A stretch of 64,000 nucleotides of DNA from Anthoceros angustus (GCA_010909165.1 MU008158.1:1451478-1515477), one strand, 5' to 3'. Counted from the stretch's first letter, positions 22,161 to 61,634 are shown. Translations and numbers: made by a program. The notes: generated from the sequence alone by a model not told the origin.

Positions 22161-22164
22161 CCCT

Positions 22165-22830: not shown

Positions 22831-22867
22831 AAGTTGAGGAAAGGAGGGAGCAGAATTTGAGGTGCTT

Positions 22868-23311: not shown

Positions 23312-23336
23312 CTGCTGTACGCAGCAGCCAATAAAG

Positions 23337-25703: not shown

Positions 25704-25921
25704 TGTTAGAATTAATACCACACTAGCCCTTAGGGCACGGTTCGTAATTATCATTAAGTAAGCTTAAGTATCTAGTGAACGAACACGATGACGGTTACAA
25801 GCACAATGCTTCGGCATATCCTCAATGTAATGAGCACAGTGCTTACAGATGCAATTCTAATCCATCTACAATTATCTAAATCCTAGGAATGGTAACATAG
25901 TATCAGAGCACGGACATTCTT

Positions 25922-26191: not shown

Positions 26192-26503
26192 TAAGGCAAT
26201 TTACCACTACGGTTGATGTTCACACACCACTCAACCCAGCACAAATAAGAGAAACATTAATCACCAGCTCAAAACCTATGTAGACAGCATAGCCTTCTAA
26301 TGGTGCCCAGCTCTGCAGATAACCTGTACATCCTCCCTTCACAATCAGAATTTGAGGAATTCCAAAATAAGATAATTCAGAATTTACAAGACCTAGAAGC
26401 ACATATAGAATCTAACTCTAACACCTGCAGAAACTACAAAATTGTAGTTACTCTCCAAATACACACAAATTGCCTCCTTAGGAGCACAATTCTTAGCCTT
26501 TAA
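26188..26503 (+). CDS. extra ORF2 (coiled-coil-like, frameshifted) upstream of copia-2 gag
   Basis: MIRQFTTTVDV... then ...EFEEFQNKIIQNLQDLEAHIES...; ends just before the gag ATG at 26531. Confidence 0.4.
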
Positions 26504-29047: not shown

Positions 29048-29472
29048 TCTAATACTAAGGCCATATTAGAAGAGACCAGATCTATGCTAGCTAAGCTTTT
29101 CTCTACGACTACTTGTAGAGAGCTTTCTTTCTGTTTAGGCATCCAGGTTCTAAGAGATAGAAAGGCCCGAAGCATTCTTATTCATCAATCTAAGTATATT
29201 CAAGAGATTCTAACAAGTTCTAAGATGTTAGAGGCTAAACCTATCTCTACACCCATGGAAATGAACCTTAAGCTTAGCAAGGAAGCAGATCAACATGATG
29301 ACACTTCAGACACTACTCCTCCTCCTTACTCTTCAGCCGTAGGTAGTCTTATGTACCTCATAGTTTGTACTAGACCAGACCTATCCTATTCAGTGGGAGC
29401 CCTGTCACAGTTCCTATCAGCTCCTACTCAAGCTCATTGGAAGGCAGTTAAGAGGATATTTAGATACCTAAA

Positions 29473-29712
29473 ACTTGGGCAGTGCGGACCATTGAAGCAG
29501 GTGAGGAGTTGTTTGTTGAGTACAATTGGTTTGACCCAAATTATGCGATAGCGAGAATAAAGGCTGCAGAGCGTGAGTATGCACATACTAAAGAGTATGT
29601 GCAAAGAGAGTGGAAGAAGATGAAGGCAAAGTTAATGCATGAAGACAGGAGTGCGGATGCGGAGGAGTATGTAGATCTTGTAGAATATGCAAAAGGGAAT
29701 GGGAAAAGATGA
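29473..29712 (+). pseudogene. C-terminal part of a transposon-borne SET-domain ORF
   Basis: TWAVRTIEAGEELFVEYNW matches the SET C-terminal motif A-x-R/K-x-I-x-x-G-E-E-L-x-x-x-Y. Homologous to 57367-57540. Confidence 0.8.
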
Positions 29713-29930
29713 AGGCAAAGTTGATGAAAGAGGATGTAGATTTAGAGTAGTATTTGCATGACACGTGCTGAATGATATGAATATTAGTTTTTCCTTACTG
29801 TGTTTGAAGTTTGAACATAGTTTATCTAGGTGATTGATATCCTTTAGAGATCATGGTCAAGCTAGCCTATAATAAAGTATTATATATTTTATTTTAATAA
29901 CATGTTATGTATGTTTCCTCAAAAATTCTA

Positions 29931-32330
29931 GGTTGAAGGGGAAAAAAATCATGGTGAATCCATGCATGAGGAAGAAAACGAATACATTCACCCTCATGAA
30001 CAAGTGGCTATAGAGATGGTGGAGGCACTTGGTGGAGTAGCTGGTATTGCCGACATGACTGAGGAAGAGGTAAATTCTTTGCCTAAGGAATTGAAGAGAA
30101 TGCATACAGCTGCAACCACATCTTTATGGACCGGAGCCAAAACAAATTTGTCATTTACCTTATTATTGCTTAACGTCGGAGGAGGCATTGTTGGTCGGAT
30201 GCATCTGTGAATACTATGTTGGAATTAATAGGGAGCTTAGGACTCCCCGCTGACAACAAGTTGCCCAAGAATAGAGTTGAGATAAGAAAACTATTGAAGG
30301 GATTTGGCCTGTCTTATAAATCTATACATGCTTGTCCAAATGACTGTCTATTATTTCATGGCGAGCTACGCTCGCTAATGTCTGCAAGTGTGGGGCAAAT
30401 AGATGAACGGATACAAAGGGCAAAAAATACCGAAGGTGTTGCGTTATTTCCCATTAATTCCTAGGTTGAAGCAAATGTTTAGGTGCAAGAAGCTAGCTAG
30501 TATGATGTCTTGGCATGCAACATTTAAGTCTAGTGATGGGATCATGCAAATACCATCACAAACCAAGCGTGAATACCAAACATTTCCGAGTTTGCTATGG
30601 AGAGCGCAATATTCGATTTGGGCTTACTCGATGGGATTAACCTGCTTTGGACACCGAGTTCTCAATATTTCATTTGGCCAGTGCTACTTGTCAATTATAA
30701 CTTGCCTCCATGGATGTCCATACACAATGGACATATATTATTATCAATGATTATTCCTGGTCCGAAGCAAATGAAAAATGCAGACATTTATTTCCGACCG
30801 CTTATTGAAGAGTTGAAGACCTAAACCCAAGCTAAACCCTACCCTTGGGCCCCAACCTAAACCCAAGCCCAAGGGTAGGGCTAGGGCTAGGGCCAGGGCC
30901 ATGGGCCATGGCAGTGCCAAGCCCCAAGCCAAGTATGGGCCTAGGCCTAGGCAATCAAGGAAAAGGAAGAGAGGACAAGATGATGCAGTTGATGAAGGAA
31001 ACGCTCGGGAACGTGTGCATATACTGGACTCCGCACCTTGGGTTCTTGGACATGGCACTAACTATTCTTATCCTAAAGCATTGGAGAAATTGAAGAGAAG
31101 GGTTTGCAACATCCAGTATGCCCAGGGTATGGGTCCAACTTGAAACGTTGTTTTAAGAAAGGGACACGAGAGACAATTTCAGGCCTGAAGTTCCATGATC
31201 ATCATCATTTGTTATGTGACATATGGCCAATTGCCTTGAGAGGGTTGATACATCCACATGTGCATAAGGCTATATGTGATCTCGCAGAACTAATGCGTTG
31301 GCTTACCGCAAAAGAAATTGTGAAGGATGAGATTCCTTCTATGAAGGTCAAAATTGCGGAGGTGATGTGCATTTTGGAGAGAGAGTTTCCTACAACATTT
31401 CTGACAAGCCAGGTCCATGGTGTTATTCATCTAGTGCAGGAGGTTGAATTATGTGGGCCCACACGCTATCGTTGGATGTATTTTCTTGAACGACATATGA
31501 AAGTGCTAAAGAACCTTGTACGACAAAAAGCTCGACCGGAAGGAAGCATGGCTTTAGGATATCTAGCACAAGAGACAATGTTTTACTCTTCGAATTCTTT
31601 GGAAATATCCATAATGCAGCTCCACGGATGTGGACAATGAAAGAAGATGTTACTCAAAGTGGGAGTTGTTACAAGGATATGGAAGATAAAGCGTCGCCGG
31701 ATGTGGAAAGGAGTCAAGTGAGGAAAGTGATATTAGAGAACTGAGTGGACTAAGCAATGGAAAGAAGTATATGATGACAACGAAATCAAGATCGCCTTTG
31801 TGGAGTTAAGCGATGAGGTGGAAGATCTAAAAGGGGAACGCATTAGAAATATATGGAAAGGAGGTGGTTGCACTTGTAAGAGGGCCATTTGAATCTGCGT
31901 TCTTATAGCATGATGTGGGCATATGGACATCATATTCGGACGGCGGATCTTGATGCTGGGAAACAAATTTGTGATAGCATCATAACACAACTATATACAT
32001 TTCTATGTATTGAAAAACAGGGTGACCTTGAACCCATTGCAGCACAGCTTCCATGTTGGAACAATGGAGAGGATTTATGAAGTTGATTTTGGAGTTACTA
32101 CAAATATAAATGTGCTCAAGGTAAAGTGGTTCCACACGGAATGAGGATAGGATAGAGAGAAAGAGATGACTCCGGTATGGTCATGTTGAATCCAAACAAA
32201 ACGTTATCTCAAGAAAAGCTGAAAGACGAACCATTCGTTATGGTATCTCCGAAATTGGAGCGAGCTTTTATGCAAAATACCCAAAAATCTTGGAAACTTG
32301 TAGTTGGTACAAGCCCGTGGAAGACGTGTA
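29931..32330 (+). pseudogene. CACTA TnpD transposase, frameshifted and internally deleted
   Basis: IHACPNDC, LRYFPLIPRL, WPVLLVNYNLPPW, IIPGPKQ...YFRPLIEEL, GLKFHDHH, HLVQEVELCGP..RWMYFLERHMKVLKNLVRQKARPEGS. Confidence 0.95.
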
Positions 32331-32339
32331 GTAGAATGT

Positions 32340-32610
32340 GACGATTTTGATGGAAGACATGTCCATGAAGTGCTGGAATACAAGGATGACATGGAAGACG
32401 AGGATATCGATAGAAGACACGAAGTGGAAGATGATCATGAGCATATCGATGGAACTAGATATGTAGTGGAAGATAACGATGAAATGGAAGATGAGGATAT
32501 CAATGGAAGATATGTTGTTGAAGATGACATGGAAGATGAAGATATTGATGGAAGGCATGTAATCGAAGACGAAGCTGACATAGAAGATGAGGATATTGAT
32601 GAAAGACAAA
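32340..32610 (+). repeat. acidic coding repeat (DDMEDEDIDGRxVxE units) at the TnpD 3' end
   Basis: Five to six imperfect ~40-50-bp units. Confidence 0.75.
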
Positions 32611-33074
32611 TTACGCAGTGGATGACCACACTGCCTGACCTCGAGATCGGTGAATGGTTTGTGGCAGCGGTTGGTGGGCGCTTTTCAGCTTTGCGGTCAG
32701 TCGGCGGAATCCACCATAGGCGGTAGATGGAAGAGGATGCCATTCCTCCTGCGCAGTGCCTCGTATGGCCACACCCGTTGCAGGCATGGCCCAACATAGA
32801 TGGTGCACACAAATTGATTATAGGCGATGGCATAAATTACATGGCGAGCAGGTGGATGAGTCTGGGTCGTGATGCCTGTATTTGCAACTCGATAATGGCA
32901 GCGTGAAGTTGGCTCAGTTTTGCTGTAATGCAACGTTAATTGCGCGTATGCCCAAAATACAAATTTCAATGTTGTAGTAAAGTGTTTCGTCTTTGTATAG
33001 CATGTGAATGTGTTTGAAATAGTACAGAGGGGTGGCATGTGCGTGTTGGAGTGAACATCCTCCGCCGCAGAAAT

Positions 33075-33359
33075 AATGGGGTTTCCATAATGGGGTTTCC
33101 AAGTCTGCAATATATAGAAAGAAAAGAATGGTTCTAACATATATTCAGACATTGAGCACCTGGTGCTCTGATACCATGAAACTTTTGTGAGCGGAAGCTC
33201 GTTAAATTGCAAGAAGGAATAAAAGCAATTAATTAAAAGTTGAATACAAAATTGTCTTCAGTACTTCATGTGAGTAGGTGTGACCATTCACCACTAACCA
33301 AGATATTAAATAACTAAATAATAACTGGTAGGTTAATAGGAACCTTCCACATTCTAACA
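33075..33359 (-). mobile_element. copia-3 5' LTR (33177-33359), PBS and start of the internal region
   Basis: TGTTAG...TTTCA followed by TGGTATCAGAGC (33165-33176), then an ATG 12 nt later. Inserted in the old copia RNase H remnant. Confidence 0.85.
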
Positions 33360-33861
33360 GTTTGCTCTCGCCCTAGCCGGTAACCCCAAGTATAGCTCAC
33401 TGTCCAAACACTTACATCTTTTGTATCATTGTGAGCAAAGTGCCCAGGGGAAATACGACTGGAATATTGCCCTACAGAAGTTATGGGAGATGATATCTTG
33501 ACCAAGAGTCTACCAAGACATGAGCACATGACATGCGTTGCTTTGTTAGGCGTGCATGGTCAAGATACTTAAACCAAAGAGCCTCAGGTACCTAGTATGA
33601 GGGGGCGTTATAGCTAGATACTTAGGGGACAAAGCCCAAGGGTCACACCCCTTGATATGGGGGTATTTAGACCCCTTGAACACAATCCTAATTGCTTGTC
33701 ATCCACTTCTCACATCTCTTGCATCCTAGCCATCGCCTCTAATCTTCTAGGAGGGAGCTATTGAAAACTGGGCAGCAGGTGCATGCCAATGTGTTGGCCA
33801 GTGGCGCTGAGCCTCTGTGGCTTGTGTGGAATGTGCTTGGGCCGTCTATGCACGGTGTGTG
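33360..33861 (+). repeat. inverted homolog of 22056-22578 (copia RNase H/LTR remnant plus PPR flank)
   Basis: Reverse complement matches 22056-22578. Confidence 0.9.
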
Positions 33862-34203
33862 TGTTACGATCCCTGGGATTTAGACAATCGTAGATGGATT
33901 AGAATTGCATCTGCAAGCAGTGTGCTCATTACATTGAGGATATGCCAAAGCATTGTGCTTGTAACCGTCTATGTGTCGGTTCACTCAAATATCTATTCGT
34001 ATCTAGATACTTAAGCTTACTTAATGATAATTAGGGACCGTGCCCTAAGGGCTAGTGTGGTATTAATTCTAACACTCCCACTTAGCACCTAGTCCTTAGG
34101 TTGTATGTCTCTAATCTTGCTGAGTATTAAAACTAATTTATGAAATTCTTCTTAGTCCCATATTTCATGTGTGTTCTTGGTGTTTGATGGAGCTGAGTGC
34201 TTT
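33862..34203 (-). mobile_element. copia-2 3' end, now inverted: 3' LTR 33862-34074, PPT, RNase H C-terminus
   Basis: Reverse complement of the 25704-25897 LTR, diverged and with one ~18-bp indel. TSD GTGTG (= CACAC) at 33857-33861, PPT GCTAAGTGGGAG, and KALSSIKHQEHT. Confidence 0.92.
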
Positions 34204-35303
34204 CACTACTAGAAACATGGGGGTGTGGTTACGTTTTTATGTTACAATTTGGCCCTATTATGTAATATATGGGGGCCATTTGTGGGCTCATGTTACAGGT
34301 CTTAGCCGCGGGTCCATGGCTCAAAAGTGTAACATAAAACGTAACCTTTTCACTGTAACATGGCATCCTATGTTGAGTTTGGAGGGTCGGTTTATGTGGT
34401 TCGGCGGGCGTATAATACCTGTCGTGTTAGCGTAGGGATACTTTAATTTGCCACAGCTGGCGTGCAAGGGCCTCATTATTCTGTCAAGCATGGGCCCCGT
34501 CCAATCCTCTCTCCGCTTTGGCCACGTCACATACATGCTACAATACCATGGATGCACATGGCATGCTCGGACGGCTTTCTGCCTCGGGGGGACATATCAG
34601 CTCCTCCCCGTTCGCCACGCGCCCTTCCTCCCGCGAACTCAGCGTCAGTGGCATGATGACAAACATGTGCCGGTGCTTATGTGTACGATTGGTTGCCTTC
34701 CACATGGCACACTCTGCACCAACGCTCGTTTGTGTGCCTGTCTTTTGTATATTTCGGTTTACAAGAACCCCTCAATTGTATATTGCCAAAACTAGTTGTA
34801 TTCTGTACACAGGTGTTGTGGTGATACCCCGCTACGTGTTGTATACTGATCGCAATCACCCATACGCGGCGGTATACTTGATGCGCAATTTGCTTATCTT
34901 CAATGCCCGTGTGGCGTGCGCAGGTGATCGTGTTTTCGCCTGCGACCCCAATTGGTTTGCTTCGTTTAGTCTTGCCCCGTGATAGCTTTTTTCCGTGACC
35001 TGCCGCAGTGCGCATCTGCACTAAAGGGCACATGCAATCAATCGAAGTCTGCGGCAGCGAACTTGGATGGCCCCTCTGATGGACGGCCGTGAGAAGAAGG
35101 ATTCCTCTTTTGTTTTGACTTCTTCCCACTCATATGATTGGAGGCCTTTTCCTTCTGCTTATGCGCTGCTTCGTCCATTTGTTCGGTTGCCTGCCAATTA
35201 ATGAACAACAACAATTTTCACAACACACAACATGCAGGCGCTAGACTCACTGGTTTGTGTGACCACAACCGGCATACACAGCCAAACTGAATTCCCGGCA
35301 CAC

Positions 35304-35749: not shown

Positions 35750-37005
35750 CTTCCTTCGTCCTTCCGACGCTTTCGACTTGTCTTCGCAGGTGGTGACTAA
35801 ACCTCTTCCACGTCATCGCTAGAAGCACTGTTCCCGATAGATGGGATTTGTTGTGCACTCCTTCCCTCATTCTGACGTGCAGTGGACGACCTATGTGCAT
35901 GACTTCCATTATGCGCAGATTTGCGACTTTGTTCCTCCTCAACACCATTATCGTCCTGGACCATTTCCACCTCCTTCTGCCATTGTAGGTTGCCGTTTCC
36001 TACAATGTGGCCTTCCACCTCAGTCCTTCCGCATATGCCTGGCTTGACTCAACCATTTCTTCTTCCGTTGATTCCACCAACATGTCTTCCGGATCCATAG
36101 CGCATCGTTGTTTGCCGTGTGTCCTTGCTCATGTCCCTGTAGATTGCCACCGATCCCTTGTACATCGTCATCATTGCCAATACCCTGTAGGAGTTGTACC
36201 ATATTCGCTGTCGTCCGGCGGATGGATCTCATATCCAGCTCATCCGGAATTGAGTCTATTCCATGCCTGCATGTGCCACTCATCCTCCTTGCCCTTGCAT
36301 CCGTGATAACATTTGCCATATCTTGGCCTGCCTTCTTTGCATCCCAATACTCCTCGTCTCGCACGCCGTGTAATCGCCATACTACACCTCCTCCTCCGTT
36401 GGCGGCCGTGTTTACATTTGAACCTCTCCATCCAGCCTTGCTTGCCTCCTTTCCCCCATAGGTTGGGACCCATCCCCCCCGACTTCCCCAACCTCACTTT
36501 GGCTGCAATGGATGCTTTGGACGGGAGGAAATTGCCATGTTGGCGCAATTCAACTCTAGCCCAACTACGCTTGCCAAGATTTGTCGTCTGTGCCTGGGCT
36601 TTGTCGTTGTCTAGCACGCCTTTGTTCTCATCTCTTCCACCATTTCGCACATTCATATGGCCCGCAATGTTCATCACGGTTACGGAGGAGAATTTTTCCG
36701 ATTATTCTCTCATAAGGTGTCCGGAAGGCCTCCTCCACTTCCGCACACAGTTGTCGCTTCTGCTGTTCCGAAACGTCCTTCCACTTTTCCAACCCCGGCA
36801 TCTCCACCGTTGTTAAATTATGCCTCACCATTTTCACCATTTCCGCATGCCGTTCCGGACCGAGGCCCCCGTACGCCGCCGGATCTCCTGCCCCTTCATC
36901 TTGTTCAACTTCATCTGCCGGTTCATCCATGATGTTATGCACCCATTCTTTTCCTCTCCTATGAACAATGGCTTGCATCAAAGCCCTATTGTCCACCTTC
37001 TCCAC
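35750..37005 (-). pseudogene. CACTA TnpA-like (Transposase_24-like) ORF, frameshifted
   Basis: KWKDVSEQQKRQL..F and WGKGGKQGWMERFKCKHGR, similar to HFGNGGFVKFTNRFYQLFGRRPT in the 47-50 kb repeats. Family call by resemblance only. Confidence 0.55.
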
Positions 37006-37249
37006 AACAATCGGTGGGTGTAAGCAATCTCCTACACAGAACTGTGCGGCCGCCCACCACCTCCCTCAACAAAATTGTCATTCCACCTGTTGCCGAGGGT
37101 GGCAGCCGCCGCTTGATCACCGGCCGCAGTCCTTCTTCTCATCGTGGCATAGGTGTTGTGCGATGGCGGCTCTTCCCACCTCTTCCCGAGGCTCGACAGG
37201 TGTGGCCCTCGCTGCTTGTTCTCCCCGATAGGGCCGCATACTGTATGTG

Positions 37250-38105
37250 TTGCCCTCTGGATTCGTTATGGCCGGGGAGGTGGGTATGGGGATGAACCTC
37301 TGCTGCCCATCCCACCTACTTTCAGCGCCTGGCGCTGATAGTCCATGCCTCGCTCGCCTAACCCGCCTACACAAGTCCACAAGCATGCACCTTGTCAGTG
37401 GAGGTGGCACATGCGGGGTGCTATATTCCTGATACCAACTCTCCCACCGTTGACCTCACATGATGCTCCAGATCGTCGCCGGTGTGAACATCATCCAGTG
37501 TTCCGTCGAATCCGTCCAAATCTTCCAGCTGAGGCGTTGGTAGCCGAATCCGCTCCATAGCTGCAACACCGGCAGAAGCGTACCTTAGAAGCCGCGCACG
37601 CGAAGAGGGCCAACAAAAGCAGGTCACTGCTAAAGCGGAGCCTTCCTGAACACTCGCCAGGTGACATGCAAGATGATGGTCTCAAGTGCCCTCTGGATTC
37701 GTTATGGCCGGGGAGGTGGGTATGGGGATGAACCTCTGCTGCCCATCCCACCTGTTTTCAGGCGTTTCCTGGGCGTTGATAGTCCATGCCTCGTTCTCGT
37801 CTAACCCAGCCAGCTACACAAGTCCACAAGCATGCACCTTGTCAGTGGAGGTGGCACATGCGGGGTGCTATATTCCTGATACCAACTCTCCCACCGTTGA
37901 CCTCACATGATGCTCCAGATCGTCGCGGTGTGAACATCATCCGGTTAGTCGAATCGTCCAAATCTTCCGGTGGCGTTGGTAGCGAATCCGCTCCATAGCA
38001 TGCCGTGACGTACCGCGCCGCGAGAGGGCCAACAAAAGCGGTCCTTTGCTAAGCGGGCCTTCACGAACACTCGCCAGGTGACATGCAAGATGATGGTGTC
38101 AAGCG
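37250..38105. repeat. ~440-bp tandem duplication
   Basis: tgccctctggattcgttatggccgggg... at ~37251 and ~37687. Confidence 0.88.
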
Positions 38106-45042: not shown

Positions 45043-46229
45043 TAAACACACAAACATAGAAGCCATTCCCCACACACAGACTCCCACAAACAAACATGGG
45101 GCCATTCCCCAGACACACACACTCCATTGGGGCCATTCCCCGGACACACACAAAGGGACATTCCCACAAAAAGCCGATGTCGATCAATTTCTAAGAGTTT
45201 CTAAGGAGCAACTAAAAGAAAGCACCAAACTAGAATTCCTCGCTCCTTGATCTCTTCAAATTGGACTTGAAGTTGAAGCCTCATTTCCTTCCTCTTCATG
45301 CTCTTCACCCTTGATGACTTGAGCTCTTTGGCGTAGTCCGGACCTAGCTTCACAAGGCGTTGAGCTTCAAGTTCTGTCGTCGATTCGATGAGAGGCCATG
45401 AGATTGAAAAACTTTTCCTGCATTTAGAGAGGGATACCTCAACCTCTTCAAATTCTTCCACCTCTTCCATGAGATGGAGTGGTTCAACTTCAACAAGTAC
45501 TTCATCGTGGCTTCGTTCCTGCTCTTGACCACACTTGGGAGGTTAAGGCTTCCCACCCGAGGGGCGGAGGCCACAGGTCTGCAAGAATCGAATATGTTAC
45601 CAAGAAGCCGGTGTTACAAGCAGACTTGAAAGATCTTCTATAAGAACTACAGAGGAGAAAGATCCTCACTTAACCCGGGCTTCAATCTAGGCACCAAATT
45701 GTCCAAAAACCAGCCGTCATCATCACTATCACCATCATCTTCCCCGCCGCCTTCATCTTCCTGGTCCTTCATCTTGATCCCAGAGGTGCTCTTGCACCGC
45801 ACTTTCCATCTTGAGTTGGATCTGCGTCCCAACTCCTCAACAACCGCCGTGTCTGCGGGCACGTTTTCTACTCCGGTAGTCCCGCAGCATCACGGGGCGT
45901 AATGTGTTGTCCCCACGGTAGTCTGGTGACTACGTAGGGTGGTCACCTCACCGAGGTAGGGTGACCCCTATGAGGCTGTCCCCTCTCCCTTGCCTCCGCC
46001 TGCCTCCCGATCTTGGCATCGCGGTGACTCCTTCACCTCCCGACTCCTCGACATGTGCTCACACTCTCCCTCTCCACAGGCTCAAGGCTCACAAGCTCTC
46101 ACAGCTCAAGGCTCAATTTTCAAGGCTCACAAGCTCGGCTCACAAGCTCTCACAGTGCTCATAGGCTCTCACACCGCTCCAAGGCTCGCACACACTCTTG
46201 CAGGCTCGCACAAAACTCACACACACACA

Positions 46230-46269
<40 letters not shown>

Positions 46270-46930
46270 TAAACACACAAACATAGAAGCCATTCCCCGG
46301 ACACAGACTATTAAACAAACATGGGGCCATTCCCCACACACACACTCACAAACATTGGGGCCATTCCCCAGACACACAAAGGGACATTCCCACAAAAGCG
46401 ACGTGATTCAATTTCTAAGAGTTTCTAAGGAGCAACTAAAAGAAAGCACCAAACTAGAATTCCTCGCTCCTTGATCTCTTCAAATTGGACTGGTTGAAGC
46501 CTCATTTCCTTCCTCTTCATGCTCTTCACCCTTGATGACTTGAGCTCTTTGGCGTAGTCCGGACCTAGCTTCAAAGAAGGCGTTGAGCTTCAAGTTCTGT
46601 CGTCGTTCGGAGAGGCCATGAGATTGAAAAACTTTTCCCATTTAGAGAGGGATACCTCAACCTCTTCAAATTCTTCCACCTCTTCCATGAGATGGAGTGG
46701 TTCAACTTCAACAAGTACTTCATCGTGGCTTCGTTCCACACCGGCCGACCACACTTGGGAGGTTAAGGCTTCCCACCCGAGGGAGGCCACACCCGATTCT
46801 GCAAGAATCGAATATGTTACCAAGAAGCCGTGTTACAACAAAGACTTGAAAGATCTTCTATAAGAACTACAGAGGAGAAAGATCCTCACTTAACCCGGGC
46901 TTCAATCTAGGCACCAAATTGTCCAAAAAC
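44510..46930. repeat. two ~1.2-kb tandem units (type A), each with a (CA)n microsatellite (~44986-45040, ~46217-46268)
   Basis: Co-linear homology between 44510-45720 and 45721-46930. Confidence 0.9.
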
Positions 46931-49900
46931 CAGCCGTCATCATCCACTTGCTTGCGCTCCAATGCCGTGTTACTCCTATGGCAAATCCAAAAACGAGTTA
47001 AAATAGGACAATCAAAACTTGCAAAGACATCAAATCAAAATCTTACCATCCAAATCATCATCTTTGTAACCAGCATCCTTGAGGTCCCGCCACAATTGTT
47101 TGGCACCTATTCTGGGGTTGGAGCCAAACGCTCCGGATGAGGAAGATTGGCGTCAATATGTTTCAAGTTTTATTATCCAATTTCCGGCCTTCTTGCCACC
47201 TCTCTCTCTTGCTCCGTGGGGCGTCTACCAAAGAGTTGGTAAAACCGATTTGTAAACTTCACAAACCCACCATTACCAAAGTGGGCATACGGTGGGCATC
47301 CGAGTTCAACTTCCTCAACATTGCTATGCGTTTTGTGCGACATCTCCATCCCGGCCTTGGCTTTTCATTCTCCACAATGCGATCCCACCGGTCACCGAGA
47401 TATCACGAGGCTTATACTTAGGTGGATGATTACCCTCAAGAAATTGTCTTGCGCATCTTGCAAGATTGTTCTTCCAATTGCGCAACATGGTGTTGAACAT
47501 TTGGTCACACACATGAGCCATGCTCCAAATCCCACCAACATCTCTTGAATGGCTGCCTCCACAATTGCTTGTGTCTCTAGTTTCTCTCCCGGTTGCCAAT
47601 CAATGGATCCATGAAGTGCCGCATTACCCACCTCAACCGAAATTGGAGCACTTCATATGAATCTTCTTTAATCCAACCGACACACATGAGAAGGAAAACA
47701 TCGAATATGCTTGTACATGCGTGCGAGCATGTGGCTGTAAGTGGCATGTATAGGCCACATGCTTGTCTGAGCACATGCTCTGAGCATGTGGCATGTACAT
47801 CCTTATGCAGTTAGCCAAGCGGGCCACACACTGCATGTTTAGCTTGCGGACCAACGAGAAACACACTGCTTAGGCTTGAGAGACCAAAGGAGAAACATGG
47901 GCGGTCAAGGCCACACCCGATTGCAAGAATCGAATATGTTACCAAGAAGCCAGGTGTTACAACAAACAGACTTGAAAGATCTTCTATAAGAACTACAGAG
48001 GAGAAAGATCCTCACTTAACCCGGGCTTCAATCTAGGCACCAAATTGTCCAAAAACCAGCCGTCATCATCCACTTGCTTGCGCTCCAATGCCAGTATTAC
48101 GGCTCCTATGGCAAATCCAAAAAACAGAGTTAAAATAGGACAATCAAAACTTGCAAAGACATCAAATCAAAATCTTACCATCCAAATCATCATCTTTGTA
48201 ACCAGCATCCTTGAGGTCCCCACAATTGTTTGGCACCTATTCTGGGGTTGGAGCCAAACGCTCCGGATGAGGAAGATTGGCGTCCAATATGTTTCAAGTT
48301 TTATTATCCAATTTCCGGCCTTCTTGCTGACCTCTCTCTTGCTCCGTGGGGCGTCTACCAAAGAGTTGGTAAAACCGATTTGTAAACTTCACAAACCCAC
48401 CATTACCAAAGTGGGCATACTGGGCATCCGAGTTCAACTTCCTCAACATTGCTATGCGTTTTGTGACATCTCCATCCCGGCCTTGGCTTTTCATTCTCCA
48501 CAATGCGATCCTTTGGTCGGCCGAGATATCACGAGGCTTATACTTAGGTGGATGATTACCCTCAAGAAATTGTCTTGCGCATCTTGCAAGATTGTTCTTC
48601 CAATTGCGCAACATGGTGTTGAACATTTGGTCACACACATGAGCCATGCTCCAAATCCCACCAACATCTCTTGAATGGCTGCCTCCACAATTGCTTGTGT
48701 CTCTAGTTTCTCTCCCGGTTGCCAATCAATGGATCCATGAAGTGCCGCATTACCCACCTCAACCGAAATTGGAGCACTTCATATGAATCTTCTTTAATCC
48801 AACCGACACACATGAGAAGGAAAACATCGAATATGCTTGTACATGCGTGCGAGCATGTGGCTGTAAGTGGCATGTATAGGCCACATGCTTGTCTGAGCAC
48901 ATGCTCTGAGCATGTGGCATGTACATCCTTATGCAGTTAGCCAAGCGGGCCACACACTGCATGTTTAGCTTGCGGACCAACGAGAAACACACTGCTTAGG
49001 CTTGAGAGACCAAAGGAGAAACATGGGCGGTCAAGGCCACACCCGATTCTGCAAGAATCGAATATGTTACCAAGAAGCCGTGTTACAACAAAGACTTGAA
49101 AGATCTTCTATAAGAACTACAGAGGAGAAAGATCCTCACTTAACCCGGGCTTCAATCTAGGCACCAAATTGTCCAAAAACCAGCCATTATCATCCACTTG
49201 CTTGCGCTCCAATGATACACTCCTATGGCAAATCCAAAAACAGTTAAAATAGGACAATCAAAACTTGCAAAGACATCAAATCAAAATCTTACCATCCAAA
49301 TCATCATCTTTGTAACCAGCATCCTTGAGGTCCCGCCACAATTGTTTGGCACCTATTCTGGGGTTGGAGCCAAACGCTCCGGATGAGGAAGATTGGCGTC
49401 CAATATGTTTCAAGTTTTATTATCCAACCCGCCTTCTTGCCACATCTCTTGTCTGTGAGGACGCCTACCAAAGAGTTGGTAAAACCGATTTGTAAACTTC
49501 ACAAACCCACCATTACCAAAGTGGGCATACTGGGCATCCGAGTTCAACTTCCTCAACATTGCTATGCGTTTTGTGCATCTCCATCCCGCCTTGGCTTTTC
49601 ATTCTCCACAATGCGATCCCACCGTCGTCACCGAGATATCACGAGGCTTATACTTAGGTGGATGATTACCCTCAAGAAATTGTCTTGCGCATCTTGCAAG
49701 ATTGTTCTTCCAATTGCGCAACATGGTGTTGAACATTTGGTCACACACATGAGCCATGCTCCAAATCCCACCAACATCTCTTGAATGGCCTCCACAATTG
49801 CTTGTGTCTCTAGTTTCTCTCCCGGTTGCCAATCAATGGATCCATGAAGTGCCGCATTACCCACCTCAACCGAAATTGGAGCACTTCATCGTATGAATCT

Positions 49901-50150
49901 TCTTTAATCCAACTCGACACATGAGAAGGAAAACATCGAATATGCTTGTACATGCTGCGGTGCATGTGGCTGTAAGTGGCATGTATAGGCCACATGCTTG
50001 TCTGAGCACATGCCCGCATGCATGTGGCATGTACATCCTTATGCAGTTAGCCAAGGTGCCACACACCGCATGTTTAGCTTGATGACCAACGAGAAACACA
50101 CCGCTTAGGCTTGAGAGACCAAAGGAGAAACATGGGCGAAGGCCACACAC
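46801..50150. repeat. three ~1.13-kb tandem units (type B) containing a TnpA-like exon
   Basis: Units start at ~46801, ~47922 and ~49051 with gcaagaatcgaatatgttaccaagaagcc. Near-identical ORFs recur in the ORF track. Confidence 0.93.
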
Positions 50151-50470
50151 ACGCCAGCTTTAGGCTTGCGAGACCAAAAGAGAAACATGGGCGGCAGGCC
50201 ACACACCGCCAGCTTTAGACTTGAGAGACCAAAAGCAAACACGGCGATCAAGGCCACACACTGTTTAGGCTTGAGAGACCAAAAAGAAACATTGGGCGGT
50301 CGGTCAAGGCCACACACTGCATGTTTAGCAGCGGACCAATAGAAAAATCGGCGATCAGGCCACACACTTGTGGCTTTAGGCAGACCAAAAAGAAACATCG
50401 GATCAAGGCCACACACTGTTCGGGCTTGAGAGACCAAAAAGAAACATTGGGCGGTCGGTGGCCACACACA
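50050..50470. repeat. ~50-60-bp imperfect tandem array (ggccacacac...ggcttgagagaccaaaa)
   Basis: Seven to eight units by eye. Confidence 0.8.
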
Positions 50471-51734
50471 CACAAGCTTATGAAAGTAAAAGCAAGGAGT
50501 CATTTTCAACTAAAACCAGTAAACACTTGATTCTGGATGAATGTCCGACTGTGGAATGACGTGCGTGCATTTGGGCAGTCTCCCTTAAATCCGATTTCTC
50601 CTCGGCAATTGCGGCGGATCTTCGTCCTACCATCTCCCCTCCTCCACTGGATTTTCCACTTCTTCTGCTCCATCACTGGCCGCACTTCTTCAAACCGAGA
50701 ACCAACATTGACGGAAGGGTTAGGAGTAGGAGTGGTGGAGGTGGCATGAGACGGTCTTTGGATTGAAGGTCCGTAAGTTTTGAGCCAGCGGTGTCACGGA
50801 CAAGGGAGGAAGCAGCTTGGCCTTCTTCGCAGCTATCATCTTTCTCAAAAGGTCTGCGTGTGCACATAAGCCCTTCTGGTGGCCCTTGTTCTCTCATCGC
50901 GAAGACCTAAGAGGAGGTGGTGGTGACTTGAGGCAGTCGGTTCGCTTCTCCACGGCGCGGCACCGAGCTCTTCCACAGCGGCGCCGCCATGGGATTGGCG
51001 GGCGGTACTCCTCCACGGCATCGAGGCGGCCTCCTCCTCCACGGCATTAGGAGGAGGGCTCCTCCTCCACGGCATCGGGAGGAGGGCTCCTCCTCCACGG
51101 CATCGGAGGAGGCGCTTGTTCTCCACCGACGGGCGATCGCTCGCTTTCCTACCACACACAAGTGAGAAAAGAAAAGCCATCGTTTAGAGCTCATTATCAT
51201 CACCGACCCTAGAGCTCGCAGAACTAGTTGAAGGCGGGCGATTCAAACCACAGGCTGCGGTCGATGCGCTTGGACAAAGCCGTTGATGCACAACTCACAT
51301 TTCGAGGTGACATCGGTGGCTTGCGCTTCCGCTCCTTTGAGACGCCCTCCCGCTTCTTTGCCTTCACGGTGGCCCATTTTTTCGCGCTAGGCTCGACAAG
51401 CGGAAGCGCTCCGCTTGCTGTCTACTAAACCCAACCGAGCCGTTAGGCGGATCCTTCCACCACGGCATCCTGCGTCCCCCACACTAATCTTGTTGTGGCC
51501 AAAAGTCTTGTTTCCTTATCGCGTTACGCGCTGCAAACCCAACTTGCGCACGTAGTGCACCATCTACATTGCAAGGTGGTTGGGGTTAGTAGAAAGGCGC
51601 TTAGCAACCTTTGCCCATGAAAGTGCGTGCCCTAAAAAGCACCAAGCATAAGAGATTGGGGATGCACACAAACCTTCTTGATCCAAGGAATTCAATTTCG
51701 TAAGCCCTAATTGTGTTGTAGGTCGATTCGTGCG

Positions 51735-52989: not shown

Positions 52990-54292
52990 AAGTGGTACAC
53001 ATATGGAACGCACAAAAGGAAACTAAGAGACCCTCTCTTCTACCGTGCGGCTCGGCTCTTTTCTCGAAAGGTCGGCCACGGGCGCTTAGGATCCGATGTC
53101 ATGCGCTGATCCCCTACATTCTTGTGTACATACGTATCTGATTCACCTTAGTTCATGGTAGGCAAAGAAAGATGCTCACCTCACTGGTGCCCAAGGTGGA
53201 TCGAAATGGCTATGGAAATTTGTGCATGTTCCGAGGGGTGGTGCTTTTTGAACATATGGTTGGAAAGAGGAGGTCATCACGGTAATTGTGGTGTTGAGAA
53301 CATTGCGGTCGATTTTCTTGTAATTAGAAATTCATAATAACAAAAACGCCAAAATGGGGCAAAAGGCGTTCGGGTTAAGCATGCTCGGCTCCACGGCTGC
53401 ACGTGCAAAAGTTCTCGGCTTCTTAGTGGCGAACACTTCCGAGGCTTAGTTGAGAAAACTAGATTGCAAACTAGGTGGAGTGGAGCCGATGGGCCAGCGT
53501 AACGAATCCCGCGCCTCGAGAACCAAGTAATAAACTTGGTGAGGTTTAGGCGCTGGGCTGTCACGGTACACATACTCCGTGATGCTCGCACGTATTCACA
53601 TCCCATCTTAACAATCCCTTCATAATCACGCACGCAATGTGCGACTTTATGTACTTGTTCCAACTCGACAACTCAATTTGGAGCGGGTAGACATTTCTAC
53701 CATGGGACAATGCACATCAGCCATGTCATTGACCACCGTTGCAAACTCAAACACTTTTATCCTCCTTGATACTCCAGCAGTGGCAAATAGCTCGTCATCC
53801 CGATCAAACTCAATGCCGGACACAATATTGGAGGAGTGGAAGAGGTCCCCATGCCGCAACTCTGCAATTACCCAAGGCGGTAACGGGTGAAAGCATATGA
53901 GTGATGAGGTTTTGATGGTGACCCATGCAAGCCTACAAATAAAGCTTTAATGCTTCTTTCCTTTTGAGGGAAACCATTGGCATGAAAATGGCATGATATG
54001 ACAACGGAGTGCTTGAGCACGAGGCTGCTTAGCGTAGTGTGCTCCTCGGAGATATTTTGATGGCGATAGAGGGATTGTATGGAGCGTAGCTATGTTGTCC
54101 CTTAGGTGCTTTCAAGGCTATTGCTTGGGACTCGTGCCCCTTTAATGTGTAAAAGATCCGGTGGGAATGAATAGAATAAGGGCTAAAGGGCAATGCTTCC
54201 TCGGCCATCCACTTGAGCCCGAGTCTTAAAACCTCGATTCGCCCCTCCTTAAACGGTCTGCTAAAGAATTTAAGTCTTCTTGGCACTCATCA
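52990..54292 (-). mobile_element. LTR-like sequence (probably Ty3/gypsy) enclosing the COP1 fragment
   Basis: Starts TGATGAGTG at 54292 on minus. Non-coding LTR-like composition on both sides of the COP1 piece. No paired LTR or TSD found. Confidence 0.4.
53572..53897 (-). pseudogene. COP1: intronless fragment of COP1 (start of the WD40 domain)
   Basis: AFTRY-RL/VIAELRHGDLFHSSNIVSGIEFDRDDELFATAGVSRRIKVFEFATVVNDMADVHCPMVEMSTRSKLSC...DYEGIV..WDVNT..SITEY matches plant COP1; frameshifted. Confidence 0.93.
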
Positions 54293-56730
54293 TCATGCCG
54301 ATTGTTGATGTTGCCGCGAAGCGGCTAGGCGGTACCTAATGAGAGTTCAATCCTCGATCGCACACGAGCATTTCGAGGTTCCGTGCGCCCCACCACTCCT
54401 CTCGCTGGGGCAGTTGAAAGACCCACATATGGTTTCTTTGACGCCATGGAGTTTGAGAGTAAGGGGCTCCTTGGGGCTGTCACTTTGTTCCTGTTTCCCG
54501 AACTCGTGCACACTATAGTTTATAGCTGATCCGTTCCCAAGTCGGTTATGCGGCTCAAAGTGAGCACACACTTGAGCGATTGTGTTTGTCCGACCCCGAT
54601 TGTGAACTCGGTTGTGAACTCCGATTGTGTTAAGCGACCCGGCCGTCAAGTGCGTTTTGAGCGATGGCGGACAACTGGCGAGCCGGGCCGAGAACCATCC
54701 GGAGGTGATGGCGGCCGACAACTGGCCGTGGCCGAGGACCTTCCGGAGGTGGATCCCAGCGTCGAGGAGATGCGTGATGAAGAGGAGGTGATGCACGTGA
54801 ATTGTGCAAACTTTGACCCTTGTGACAAGGGTTGTGTAACATTGCGTCCGCTTCCTAGCCTTCCTCGGAGAAAGAGAAGGGTCCCACCCTTCCGGATGGA
54901 ACTCGTCCTTGTTTTTGGTCACATGCTTCCACGCGCACGCCTTGATGCAGCTATCATCACAGCTTGGTACTACTCTCGATCCGGGGTCTCCAAGGGCTTA
55001 CTTTTGTGAAAGCGGAACTGGATGACTCGACTGTTGAGAAATCTGAGATCTTGTGCCCAACCTAATCATCTCCTTCTATCGTAAGTGTAAAAGTCTGAGT
55101 GATCTTTCTTTGCATGATAAATGCTAATAAGGTAGATTTTGTTGAGGGCTCAAGGTTTTAATCGGCATCACGAATGGAGCACAGACAGCCACCTTCCTTT
55201 TGTGAAGACTATGCTCGATACGGACCGAGCCGGATCGAGTGATAATGAACTCATCACAAATGTGGTTTCGTAGTCTACCCAAGTCACGCGAGGTTGGCAA
55301 AGACGATCGCCTATCGAGATGTAAAAGTATCGAGCTTTTGATATAAAGTTGCTCACACATTTCACAATCTTGAGTCCCACGCAAATAAGGAAAGGCTTGC
55401 CCACCTTAAGTAAGCTAAGGCTATATCAATAGCACACTACGGTGCTTTGCAATGCTTTGCAATTGCCCAAGCTGTTGCGCTAGCGCTTTGGACCATTGCC
55501 GCACTGTAAGAGGCCAAGGCGCTTTCGCGGTTTCGCGGCATCGGTATAGGCCAAGCCGCCTTCCATTGTGCGTGCGAGGGCCTTCTCATAGCAAGGGTCA
55601 GCACCATCCGCGCGATGCTAGATAGCTACAAGTCCGTTCTGTCGGTGCTCTTTGCAAAGCGTTTTGTATTGTCGGTTGCATGCAATTGCTCATGATTAGA
55701 ATTGGCTGCTGCGGTGCGTTGCAAATGTTGCTGCGAGTGCGTTGATAAGAGAGCGCTGCAAATTTCCCAAACCGATTTACGCCTCGTGTTGTAAAGCGCT
55801 TTGGATTGACCGCCTAACAAGCACCGATCAGAAGAGGCCTTTCTCTTGTCCCAGCTACTAACCATCCACTACATAGCTAGAAGGGCCTTCCATCGTGCGT
55901 GGCGAGGGCCTTCTAGTAGCAAGGGTCAATAAAAACACGGTGCACCTAAATCGACCATCCGGATGCTAGATAGCTACAAGTCCGCGTTCGCAGGTCTATG
56001 CTCTTTGTAAAGCGTTTTGAGTATCGCGTTATCGGTTGCATGGAATTGCTCTAGATTAGAATTGGCTCGATTTATGCGGTTTACGCTCGGATCACGGAGG
56101 TTGGGCGAGGGCCGGAGCACTTCATCGAAGGTAGCCTCGCACTTTCCAACGTGCTCGGTGAAGGCAGGCAAGTGTTGTCGAGCTTAAGCTAACCCACGAT
56201 CATTGTTGAGGGTAGGTCCTTATGGATCGCTCGTAGATTTAAGCGCCCAAATATCCAATATATTTTCCAAAAATGTTGGTGCAAAGAGTGCAAGGCGAGT
56301 TCGAGCTAACCAAATCGTAAACATTTGCGCAAGAATGGACCTTACCCACGAATGAAGTCCCGGTGGAGAACCGCAAGGAGATGAAGAAGCGAGGAGGAGA
56401 AGGAGGACGAGGAGGAGAAGAACAACGAGGAGGAGAAGGAGGAGGAGAAGGAGGAGGAGGAGAGAGGAGGAGAAGAAATAGCGGAACAAGGAGAACCACC
56501 CGTAGCCACTGTGAGTTGCAATCCTTTTCTTCTATGCTAGGAAATAAACTAATGAAGTAATTATGGAGCCCTTTTCTTCTATGCTAGAAAATACAATAAT
56601 AAAGCAATTATATAATATTATCTATAGAATAATTACGATGTGGCATACTAATTGTGGTAAGTATGTTTGTCTTGTTATATTAAAGGTAGTTTAATTATTC
56701 ATATGTGTAATTATGGTTGTTTTTTTATAG

Positions 56731-57540
56731 TTGGAAGGAGTTTTTGTTTGCATGTTATAACAAGTATGACGTAGGAGTGGACACATGGCTTTGCGGTGTA
56801 GGAAAACCTTTGGATGGAAAGGCGGACCGCGGACCCTTTATTGCACCTCCTTATCATCCAAAAGAGGGGAAGATCCAAAGTCTCATGATGCTATTGTTTT
56901 ATACAAGCATCTTTTGAAAGGCGTGTACCCTAGAGAATGGGGAATGTGGGAGAAGGGACCTATTCCTATTAACAAGTCATTTCTATATTGGGGCGAAGGT
57001 GGATAGTGAAGGAGGCAACAAACCCACCATGGGGTTGGGTTTATTTTCCATGGAGAAAATCGTAGTGAGAAAAGATAATGTGAATGGAGTTCCTTTGTTT
57101 GTGTTTGGGGTCCAAAGTATACAGGAGAATATAACAAGATAGTGAACTACAACAGTTACCGATTTCCAAGTATGCATTGACTTTCAATAGACTCCGTAAA
57201 GATGTTAATGATGGCCCAATTGAGTACCTCGATGGGCATGTTGCATATAGAATGTGGCGGGATATATGAATAGTAGTAGTGGAAATATCGCAATCAAGCA
57301 ATTGCATATGGGAAGAAAGGTCGGATGGGCATGAGCTACTAAGTGACCATCTTGATTGGATTTGCACTTGGGCGGTGAGGACCATTAATGCTGGGAAGAG
57401 TTGTTTGTTGATTACAATTGGTATAAACGAACCATTTGAAGCCAAAAGGAAGGTGCGGAAGAGTACATAGACACATTAAATTACGCGGATGGAGTGGAAG
57501 AAATTGAAGGCAAAGTTGATGCACGAGGATGTGGAATAGT
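56731..57540 (+). pseudogene. transposon-borne SET-domain protein exon (frameshifted here)
   Basis: Starts after the acceptor ttttttatag at 56730. Reads MGLGLFSMEKI (57029)...PLFVF.G...KYAL...YLDG..NVAGYMNSS (57251)...SNCIWEE...ICTWAVRTINAG(E)ELFVDY (57415): the SET motifs in canonical order. Confidence 0.82.
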
Positions 57541-57795
57541 TTTTGTTGTAGGATGTAGAAGAGTTGATGTTGAGGGTCTTGTACCTTGTGTATATTGACT
57601 ATATGCAACAAAACAATTAGTATATCTTGTCCGACTTGACTTCTTAACCTTTTAGTTTTGCATGTTGTTCAATATTTTCCTTAATAATAGTGGTTATACT
57701 AAAGTTATTAAATTATAATATAATTTTTCTATATAGTACTACAATATTTTATATACTTATTTGATATTTATTTTTGCGTGTGATTGAATAATCAG

Positions 57796-60700
57796 TTGAA
57801 GAGGAACAAGATTTTATTGAGGTTGATGATCATTTTGAGGTTGATGAAGAACATGTCAACATTCATCCCGACGAACAAGTGACCATAGAGTTGGTGGAGG
57901 CACTTGGTGGGGTTTGCATCGCAGAAATGAAACAGTCGATTCCTTGCCCGAGGAATTAAAGGCGATGCACACCGCAACTACGCCTCTATGGGTTGGAGCC
58001 GAGATAAGTTTATTGGCATTCATTTTATTGTTATTGAACATCCAAGGAGGCATGGCTGGTCGGATGCATCTTTGAATTCAATTTTATCATTACTAGGCAA
58101 ATTAGGCCTCCCGGTTGGCAACAAGTTGCCAAAAGTAGGGCTGAAATTAAAAAGATGCTTAAGGGTTTGGCCTAACATATACATCCATACATGCTTGTCA
58201 AGATGATTGTATCGTTCAAAAGTTTTTGCTATTCGCAAGATGTGTGGGAAACATAGGTATCGAATTGACACGAAGCAGTGTGTGCAGTTAAGCTACTTGA
58301 TATTTTCCATTGATTCCTAGATTGAAACAAATGTTTAGATGTCCGAGCTAGCAAGTATGATGTCATGGCACGCCACAAATAAGTCTAATGATGGGATTAT
58401 GCGGGTCCCATCGGATAGCTATGCATGGGAACATGTGGACAACACTTATCCGAGTTTGCTAAGGAGCGCAACATTCGATTAGGACTTGCTACGGATGGGA
58501 TTAATCCTTTGGGCACCAAAGTTCTAGGTATTCTATATGGCCTGTGCTTCTTGTCAATTATAACGCCTCCTTGGTTATCTATCAAGAATGGGCATATATT
58601 GTTGTCAATGATTATTCCTCCAAGCAAGTCAAGATGCGATATATATTTTCAACCACTCATCAAGAGTTGAAGGTACGTGGGAGGAAGGTGTGGTCGTACA
58701 AGATGCTTCTATGGCTATTGGAAATGCTCAAAGACAATTTAAATTGAAGGCCTTATTGTTGTGGGCGATGCATGATTATCCAGGATATTCTTTCACTTCT
58801 AAAATGCAAACAAAAGGGAAGCGGGCATGTCCAATATGTTGGGACAAATTAGAAGCAAGAAAGTCAATGTTCACAAACAAAATGACGTATGATAAGAATT
58901 TTAGAAAATTTTACGAGGAACACAAGTTTAGAGTGGAAGAGCGGGATTCATTCAATGGAAAGGTGAGATGGAAATTATTCATCCGACTATGCACCAACTC
59001 CGGAGGATATTATGATCGAAAGCTTTAAGGAAATATGCAAAAGACAATGGTGAAGACGGTACAGGGTGTTACTAGCGGAGCCTTCAATTTTAAGGGAGCT
59101 TCCATCGGGAGGTATGTATGCATGCATATGGGGTCTTGCAAGTATTACCCTTTTCAAGAATATTTTAATTATATTATTGGTAGCATCGGTAGGTAGACTA
59201 ATAGCTATTCATGAAGGTTAACTTTTAGTCATGCTATTTGGTGGTTGCGAGTATTGTTGATCGGACACTTATTTGATATCATGCACATTGGAAAGAATGT
59301 AAGTCAATGATTTTGGCACATATGTGGAATCAAGATTCCCTTGGTAGTCGTGAGATCTTGAGTATTCAAATACCAAACAAGATTGGTGGCCCCATGCGAG
59401 GCCATCGCTTTGTTGGAAGGACAAAGAGGCCAAAACATTGTAAATGGGGTGCAAGGTAGCTAAAAACGCGAACCTGGGGACCGGACATTTATAACGACAC
59501 GGCACGGTTCTTGGACATGGCAGCAAAAGAGGCGAATGTATGCTAATGCAGAGGAAAAATTGAGAACAAGGATTTGCAGCATACGTACTCCTCAGGTATG
59601 GGGTCAAATTGAAGCGTTGTTTTCTAAAGGAGAGAAGAGGAATTTCGGGGTTAAAGTCTCATGATCATCACCATCATTAACGGATTTGTGGCCAATTGTC
59701 TTGAAAGGATTAATACATCATGATGTTCACAAGGCTATATGTGATCTTGCCGAGCTATTCGGTGGCTTTGTTCAAAAGAAATTGCGAAGGATGAAATTCC
59801 GCTATGAAGGTGAAAAGTGTGGAGATCATGTGTGTGTTGGAGGGAATTTCCAACGACTTTTCGACAAGTCAAGTACATGTTGTTGTTCATCTTGTGCGGG
59901 AGGTTGAATTATGTGGACCAACTCGATATCGATGGATGTATTTCTTAGAAAGGCACATGAAAGTGTTAAAGGGACTTGTTCTGACGACCGGAAGGTAGCA
60001 TGGCTTTAGGATACTTAGCACAAGAGATAATGTTTTATAGCTCGAGTTCTTTGGAAATACACATGAAGAGGCACCAAGAGTGTGGAAATCGAAGATGATG
60101 TCACCCAATGTGGGGTGTTATTGCAAGGAATGGCAAAATTATGACCGAATGATGTGGAAATGCACAGATGAGGAAAGTGTTAGTGGAAAACTCAGCTGTA
60201 CTCAAAAATGGCGAAAAGTGTATGACGGTATACGACGAGCAACGTCCTTTTGCGAGAATGGTTGATAGATGAAGTTAAAGTAGCGAAGAAAGGGAAATGC
60301 AGACAAACCTATGGGTTGGATGTGGCATTGTGCGAGGACCTCCTCGCGTGCGATCATATAAAATGATGTGGGCATATGGAAATCATATAAGGACTATAGA
60401 TGCGAGATAGGGAAAGAATACATGTGATAGCATTATAAAACATCTATATAGCCAAGCATGTGTTTCACATCAGGGACACCGAACCTATTATAGCGATTTT
60501 CCCTATCTTTGGAAAGGTGGAAAAGATTTTGGAGGTGGACTTAGGGCCGTCTAAAAAGTAAATGTGTTGAAGGTGAGATGGTTCAAGGCTCAATGGAACA
60601 AAGAGCACACTGACCATCAAAACAGATACATCTCGTATGTTCATGGTTAACGATGTCATGTTATCCAATGATAAGTTGGAGGATGAGCCATTTGTACTAG

Positions 60701-60900
60701 TATCGGAGAAAGTGGAGCAAGTCTTTTGTATGAGAATTCTAAAATGCATGGAAAATTGTGGTGGGTACAAGCGCACGTGGAAGACGATAGTACAAGGTGA
60801 GGCTCAAGACGAGGATAACATGAGTCAAGATGATGAGGATGCGGATATCATAGGTGAGGATGATGAAGACAATGATAGCGTGAGCGATAATGACCAATGA
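57796..60900 (+). pseudogene. CACTA TnpD transposase, heavily frameshifted
   Basis: WSDASLNSIL, FPLIPRL, RNIRLGLATDGINP, LLWAMHDYPG...ACPIC, GLKSHDHH, HLVREVELCGPTRYRWMYFLERHMKVLKG, DEPFVLVSEKVEQVF. Confidence 0.95.
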
Positions 60901-61634
60901 CATAGTAGAGTTGGAGTAATAGACTTGTTATGTGGAAAGGAGAAGGCGGGGAAGGGAGATGATAGAGGGATAAGGAGTGGGAGGCGATAGAGGATAAGGA
61001 GTGGAGAGGGGGAGGATAGATAGGTAATTGATAGGTTGAAAAATATTTTAAAGCTTTTCTTATAAGTATAAAAAGTATCCCAAGTCTTAAATATTTCACT
61101 TATTTAATTATAATTATGGTGAGTACAAGCGTCGTGGAAGACGATAGTACAACGTGAGGCTTCTAGTGGAAGACGCTAGTACAACGTGAGGCTTCTAGTC
61201 GGGGATAGCATGAGTGAGGATGATGAAGATGACGATAGTATGAGCGGATGATGACCAATGAGTTACATAGTAGAGTTGGAGTAATAGACATGTTATGCGG
61301 GGCAAGGAAGGGTACAATGCGAAAGAGGTAAAGAGGGGAGAGACGATGGGAGGATAGATAGATAGTTGATATAGGTTGGTGTTCAAAAATATTTTTAGTT
61401 TTTCTTAAAAACATGCTAGGTCACCGTTGGGTTGGGGTTCTACTCGATGCGTGATCCTTGCATGTCCAAATCATCAATGTTGCAAAGCGGTGATACCATG
61501 GTCCATTTCCCACGCGACGCTCTGGTCACCGACCTACATGCGCCTCCTCGTAATCGACTTTCGAATGCATCCAAGGCAACGGACTTGAACTCGGATGCAT
61601 ATTAATGCGACATGGGTACCGACATCCGAGATAG

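Follow-up and report, generated by a model that had tools for sequence, protein, structure and literature searches.

A CACTA transposon family carries a SET-domain coding block upstream of its TnpD transposase gene in Anthoceros angustus (GCA_010909165.1 MU008158.1:1451478-1515477; 64,000 nt, hereafter the window), and our analysis supports this block as stable, selected cargo of the family. Judging from the sequence, tnpD probably contains the block in its first intron, and the two coding regions would share a first exon. A preliminary description of this locus had suggested stable CACTA cargo, a suggestion now supported by a second copy, contig depth, restoration of the reading frame, and dN/dS.

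The SET coding block (56731..57539, + strand) spans about 270 codons, with an unassigned N-terminal part of ~90 aa, a SET core at 57023-57424, and a short charged tail that ends at the stop codon 57537-57539. The four SET motifs previously claimed to occur in order were all recovered by translation of the + strand within 57032-57415, where they outscore shuffled controls: GLGLF (57032-57046), YAL (57171-57179), NVAGYMNSS (57251-57277), and a last motif interrupted by a frameshift, with AVRTINA (57372-57392) before it and EELFVDY (57395-57415) after it. These contain the PF00856 hallmarks GxG, N-x-S, and GEEL-x-x-x-Y in order, with His replaced by Ser; GxG, Asn, and the terminal Tyr are retained. 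In the read-through alignment described below, a long insertion precedes the last motif. Consistent with the initial account, no post-SET Cys cluster is visible in the translations of either copy, and a pre-SET domain is also absent; the N-terminal part has no Pfam match and no Atlas match of at least 0.9. The gap between the SET stop and the TnpD body measures 256 nt with both on the + strand, in agreement with the reported co-orientation at ~250 bp.

The preliminary description proposed a PF00856 search, and the outcome is divided. No in-frame piece reaches the Pfam SET cut-off of 22.4 bits (n=17; best 13.9 bits, E 0.077, from copy 2), but an X-bridged read-through of the block scores 30.5 bits in HMMER, against a self-built profile only, and covers columns 10-117 of 119. 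The profile derives from a reference set of viral and bacterial proteins gathered with a DNA pattern built on the last SET motif in the window. All 31 reference proteins judged SET-like by eye match Pfam SET (29/31 above cut-off), and 20 of these 31 were used to build the 119-column profile. The read-through joins eight pieces with an X at each of seven breaks, five of which were placed by hand. Its HHalign probability is 96%, dropping to only 9.8% when the motif used for selection is masked; with the same masking it scores 22.3, compared to 11.6 ± 2.5 for 40 shuffles (maximum 19.1). A stiff-penalty frameshift aligner run against the profile recovered only local pieces. We also computed a motif-chain score, which seeks SET motif blocks in any frame and leaves out the motif that selected the references. 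The chain at 57023 reaches 33.3 bits, the best in the window (runner-up place, 23.6), and 0/60 dinucleotide-shuffled versions of the full window reach this value (mean of maxima 25.1, maximum 29.9).

To assess the frameshifts, we used contig depth from one DNA run that contains the element and that may be the window's own sample. A second run, presumed to be RNA, did not cover the element and bears on its expression neither way. Depth summed over contigs, which is no copy count, is 46-445 over 55934-61141 compared to 7-18 in the flanks, a more than 10-fold excess. At least 99% identity to the element is seen in 339 of 621 contigs, and single contigs on it have depths of 137-178, compared to 14.5 in the right flank. 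Between 56960 and 57460, three indels are listed, each carried by all of the depth at its place. The letters missing at 57248 and 57299 are present in all of the depth (165.6 of 165.6, one contig), and filling the contig-supported indels with N unites the three motif-bearing pieces, KYAL through AVRTINA, in a single frame. Because deep contigs restore them, these two SET frameshifts are likely assembly errors. The remaining breaks of the read-through lack listed contig support, and a gap-free contig (depth 190.7 over 57027-57125) contradicts the break hand-placed near 57104, so the middle of the read-through is uncertain. The contig restoring the SET frame also has NSS, and since this deep contig keeps it, NSS is the state of the family.

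These data bear on the possibility that the block is a set of chance motifs stitched together over frameshifts. Such an origin would fit the failure of any single piece to reach the Pfam cut-off and the partly hand-placed breaks of the read-through. It is nonetheless extremely improbable, given that both the chain score and the masked read-through beat their shuffles, that dN/dS is low (see below), and that deep contigs provide read support for frame restoration. We regard the SET assignment as close to certain.

The TnpD transposase body follows at 57796..60900 (+). Though frameshifted, it contains Transposase_21 (E 3.8e-16 and 9.3e-13), DUF4218 (E 8.1e-14), and an acidic tail, with 3/12 of the pieces scanned passing Pfam cut-offs for the two domains. 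It also contains the motifs TDG (58491), HDYPG (58771), DIMH (59275), and WMYFLER (59933), which we take to be catalytic. Transposase_21 together with DUF4218 places the protein among CACTA/EnSpm transposases of the TnpD type, and copy 2 and the deep near-identical contigs indicate multiple dispersed copies. A candidate 5' element end, CACTA at 55867..55871 (+), fits the step in depth: a step at 55867 predicts 79.8 for the bin 55717-55933, and 88.9 was seen. We found no matching 3' inverted CACTA end or target duplication in the window, so that there is one candidate end only, and this element copy appears cut near 61250. A TAGTG at 61164-61168 was rejected as the 3' end, as it belongs to a segment of the tnpD tail that is duplicated; this diverged duplication (69%) pairs 60754-61065 with 61112-61410, and the high depth ends there. 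The CACTA pair at 25721/34057 was also dismissed as element ends, being part of inverted Copia-end repeats. Another CACTA-like end lies at 34204-34216, and minus-strand ORF pieces at 36000-37500 resemble a transposon accessory gene, with no Pfam match. No TnpA-like second product was seen in copy 1 or copy 2, both of which are truncated.

The window contains several features beside the element. An isolated COP1 WD40 fragment (53668-53871, - strand, 68 codons) has flanks that are not COP1-like in frame. Among the matches listed, a transcriptome protein is 96% identical to it, Mesotaenium follows with 94% and Ceratodon with 93%, and the seed-plant entries reach 87-91%. Frame pieces of Copia-type gag, integrase, and RT were recognized by eye at 5927-10125 (-). 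An ORF at 11823-13016 (+) matches Root_cap and VWD weakly, below the cut-off in each case, and an intact single-domain DUF26 (Stress-antifung) gene lies at 15731-16174 (+; E 1.3e-13), DUF26 being a family of land-plant range. Taken together, the COP1 fragment and the DUF26 gene point to a non-seed plant as host. Repeats include nested inverted repeats at 17405-19604, MITE- or foldback-like with arms of 43-203 nt (86-97%); a 3.64-kb tandem duplication at 19700-25900 (86% identity) with a secreted-looking ORF and PPR-like pieces; and, at 45500-50500, three to four tandem units of ~1.1-1.2 kb with identical stretches, followed by a 55-nt repeat array.

A second copy of the element is found at 29473-32341, with 70-72% DNA identity to copy 1. 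It retains the C-terminal end of the SET block and the tail with its stop (29473..29750, +; 72% DNA identity, supported by translation) and a TnpD body (29932..32723, +; 70% DNA identity; DUF4218 E 4.2e-28) with an internal replacement at ~30820-31040. The order is that of copy 1, namely SET end, homologous stop, A+T-rich spacer, and TnpD. The 5' part of SET is missing, having been lost where the copy meets Copia RT/RNase H sequence. The Copia fragment there (25700-29472, +) adjoins the SET end of copy 2 with its RNase H end, and inverted Copia end sequence (33358-34074) lies on the other side of this copy. Together with the high contig depth over 55934-61141, copy 2 bears out the initial view that the element belongs to a transposon family. 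The family appears recently amplified, and intact copies should therefore exist.

We compared the two copies over hand-picked ungapped codons. The SET end and tail gave dN 0.117 and dS 1.09 (42 codons), and TnpD gave dN 0.094 and dS 0.90 (89 codons), so that dN/dS at the SET end (~0.11) is similar to that of TnpD. The SET core alone (18 hand-picked codons) gave dN 0.101, dS 0.315, and dN/dS 0.32. The low dN/dS at dS ~1 indicates that the SET block has been retained as a protein, under purifying selection, across deep divergence. For the dN/dS comparison among copies that had been suggested at the outset, the value of ~0.11, from two copies and 42 codons, is thus far from 1.

We then turned to relatives, using the best 80 of 166 confirmed TnpD relatives, 79 of which were tested for SET. 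By pattern, tblastn, and profile, SET was found in 0/79 of these loci (best E 2.3); upstream sequence of at least 3 kb is included in only 26/79, and the set contains many near-duplicates of seed-plant elements. The zinc finger is present in the nearest TnpD relative, L001, and SET is absent from it. A 90-row tree, which carries a long-branch warning, joins copy 2 to L001, L045, and P0001 (99/98) and separates this group from seed-plant TnpD.

The absence of SET from all 79 related loci and the loss of most of SET in copy 2 would both be expected of a host SET gene fragment that was captured passively and has no function. For comparison with host genes, we followed the plant histone SET classes in the available part of PMC3264562, with pre-SET, AWS, post-SET, and PHD as flanking criteria. 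Host-type flanking domains are absent here and the SET core needs no intron; in addition, the SET frame is restored in deep contigs and dN/dS is ~0.11 at dS ~1, as in TnpD. We consider passive capture improbable and retain selected cargo as the supported reading.

Searches for SET relatives returned little. A protein search with the N-terminal SET piece gave 6 candidates, none at E <=10, and the C-terminal piece gave one match among 1.84 billion representatives, a repeat protein judged spurious. Scans of metagenome and viral sequences gave 23 and 4 pattern matches, respectively, none confirmed. The second Atlas match was a cluster with SET on 23% of its members (0.91), with recognition below threshold. 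PDB searches with short SET pieces returned nothing useful; a Tudor-like PHF20L1 match to the SET tail (E 0.01) was discarded as it overlaps the SET end motif. A likeness to ATXR5/6 found no support, these proteins being absent both from 18 PDB matches and from the 60 of 100 matches listed in another PDB search, nor did an affinity to PR domains: the best of 20 pairwise partners was a canonical bacterial SET (z 5.3), with PR-like partners at z 0.5-2.3. Separately, stand-alone PR/SET proteins were observed on viral contigs (L109:856-1251, - strand; L087; L088; L100), and that of L109 matches PRDM9 chains at E 8e-14.

The arrangement of SET and TnpD points to a shared first exon. A frameshifted candidate exon at 56222..56510 (+) opens with an ATG (MDRS) and contains a zinc-finger-like CxCxxC...HL motif (56274-56339, +), which has no Pfam match and looks like the TnpD N-terminus only to the eye, and an acidic linker. 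It is followed by a predicted intron (56511..56730, +; 74% A+T) with a GTGAGT donor and a T-rich AG acceptor; a contig of depth 178 is identical to the window over 56512-56725. Beyond the SET block, an A+T-rich spacer (57540..57795, +; 75%) ends in AG and is predicted to hold the SET 3' UTR and the distal tnpD acceptor. In copy 2, an AG at 29931 stands immediately before the homologous TnpD codons. Both TnpD bodies open right after the AG, have no conserved start codon, and lack the zinc finger usually found at the N-terminus. Of the 26 relatives with at least 3 kb upstream, 20 have the zinc-finger motif, at 1.6-2.4 kb from DUF4218 in 18 and at 0.8 kb in 2. In copy 1 this distance is ~3.3 kb, or ~2.0 kb without 56511-57795. 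The finger spacing and the absent TnpD start therefore favor one first exon with two acceptors.

Alternatively, SET and tnpD could be two genes, SET having a first exon to itself and tnpD a promoter in the 256-nt spacer, or they could be spliced into a SET-TnpD fusion. Either is compatible with the comparison of the exon 1 candidate to the zinc finger at the TnpD N-terminus, which is not significant (16.4 bits; shuffle maximum 19.7), and with splice phases that disagree as assembled: phase 0 in copy 2 and one base off in copy 1, where the SET exon read in phase 0 stays open for only 9 codons. Neither sits well with a TnpD that has no conserved start codon, with an AG before homologous codons in both copies and a spacing that fits nesting, or with a SET stop that is homologous in both copies and preceded by no donor common to both. 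We consider these alternatives unlikely. The preliminary description was thus right to place SET upstream of TnpD, but its account of SET as the element's own separate gene is probably wrong, with the block likely within the first intron of tnpD.

We hypothesize that both products would be served by a single promoter close to the element's 5' end. Splicing of exon 1 to the near acceptor (56730) would give a zinc-finger/SET protein of ~360 aa with its own stop, and splicing to the far acceptor (57795) would give TnpD. From the layout of the two copies, such use of one promoter and two alternative acceptors seems reasonably probable. The predicted SET product is, to judge from its motifs, likely to be catalytically active. 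The earlier doubt on activity was based on NSS, which stands; the doubt itself is weaker now, as NSS is the family state and the solved PRDM9 chains, which are named methyltransferases, have Cys where NHS has His. We propose that the zinc-finger/SET product would methylate histones at copies of its own element to keep these copies usable. For this proposal as a whole, with a multi-copy CACTA and a selected SET as likely alternative tnpD exon, we put the chances at slightly below even.

The same selected SET exon could also act on a non-histone target, such as TnpD or a host silencing protein, or serve as a catalytically weak, lysine-binding scaffold. The replacement of NHS by NSS, the lack of pre- and post-SET domains, and the long insertion before the last motif are all in keeping with this. 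Mixed-profile PDB searches rank EZH2, KMT5A, and KMT2A chains first and also leave room for it, since the bacterial scaffold drives these matches and they give no substrate class. However, the GxG, Asn, and terminal Tyr motifs are kept, the His is missing in PRDM9 structures too, and SET cargo recurs in unrelated transposon groups, where the cited authors, in the available parts of their papers, read it as epigenetic counter-action. We therefore rate a non-histone or scaffold role as rather unlikely and continue with histones as the proposed target.

Transposon-borne SET genes have precedents. The available part of bioRxiv 10.1101/2025.02.11.637652 describes a methylase-SET accessory gene, PAG2, in Plavaka (EnSpm) elements of red algae and cites SET in Helitrons and HarbingerS; SET in HarbingerS and Phytophthora MuDR is cited in the available part of PMC12730594. 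As described there, PAG2 resembles our case in placing SET on a DNA transposon of the EnSpm superfamily, with a proposed chromatin modulation, but its SET domain is fused to an adenine methylase, and the gene belongs to a cassette of three in elements 17-19 kb long. By contrast, our element has within ~5.4 kb a lone SET block of ~270 codons, with no adenine methylase fusion and with N-terminal pieces that have no Pfam match, next to a canonical plant tnpD gene and likely within it. HarbingerS, Phytophthora MuDR, and Helitrons likewise carry a SET lysine methyltransferase gene but belong to other superfamilies and hosts, and the available text does not describe SET as an exon of a transposase gene. 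Our full-text search found no paper on SET in canonical plant CACTA elements; Repbase or preprint supplements may contain entries. The original view of SET as undescribed CACTA cargo therefore survives for canonical plant CACTAs in the literature found. Its novelty was overstated, because published SET cargo is known from several groups of DNA transposons (HarbingerS, MuDR, Helitrons), including Plavaka of the EnSpm/CACTA superfamily.

The predicted two-product splicing would parallel the Spm split of transposase and accessory regulator. According to the available part of bioRxiv 10.64898/2026.08.24.746577, alternative splicing in Spm yields both TnpD and an accessory regulator, proteins like TnpA seem confined to flowering plants, and no SET domain is named among Spm accessory proteins. 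Maize En/Spm and Arabidopsis Spm3 share with our element TnpD and, as predicted here, an accessory product made by alternative splicing, and their TnpA has anti-silencing activity in the portions available. Unlike TnpA, a helix-turn-helix DNA-binding regulator, the candidate accessory here is an enzyme domain, and no TnpA was found. VANC of VANDAL, in the available part of the same preprint, is also an element-encoded factor acting on the silencing of its own family, a role only proposed here; VANDAL elements are Mutator-like, and VANC is not a SET protein and has a sequence-specific action that is shown. Further context was drawn from the available parts of PMC12477816 and PMC4158355. By analogy, the SET product may act on element chromatin as an accessory factor, taking the part that TnpA has in flowering plants, a proposition we hold to be evenly balanced. 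More tentatively, and with greater doubt, CACTAs outside seed plants may use an alternatively spliced SET, steered by the zinc-finger exon of the transposase, as an anti-silencing, self-targeting histone writer in place of TnpA.

The known plant anti-silencing factors VANC and TnpA are DNA-binding regulators. If our reading is true, a histone-writing enzyme made from the transposase transcript would give the element a direct route to alter its own chromatin. In green plants, H3K27me3 preferentially marks DNA transposons (available part of PMC11982613), and an element-borne SET would thus test whether the elements themselves write part of this marking, or the escape from it.
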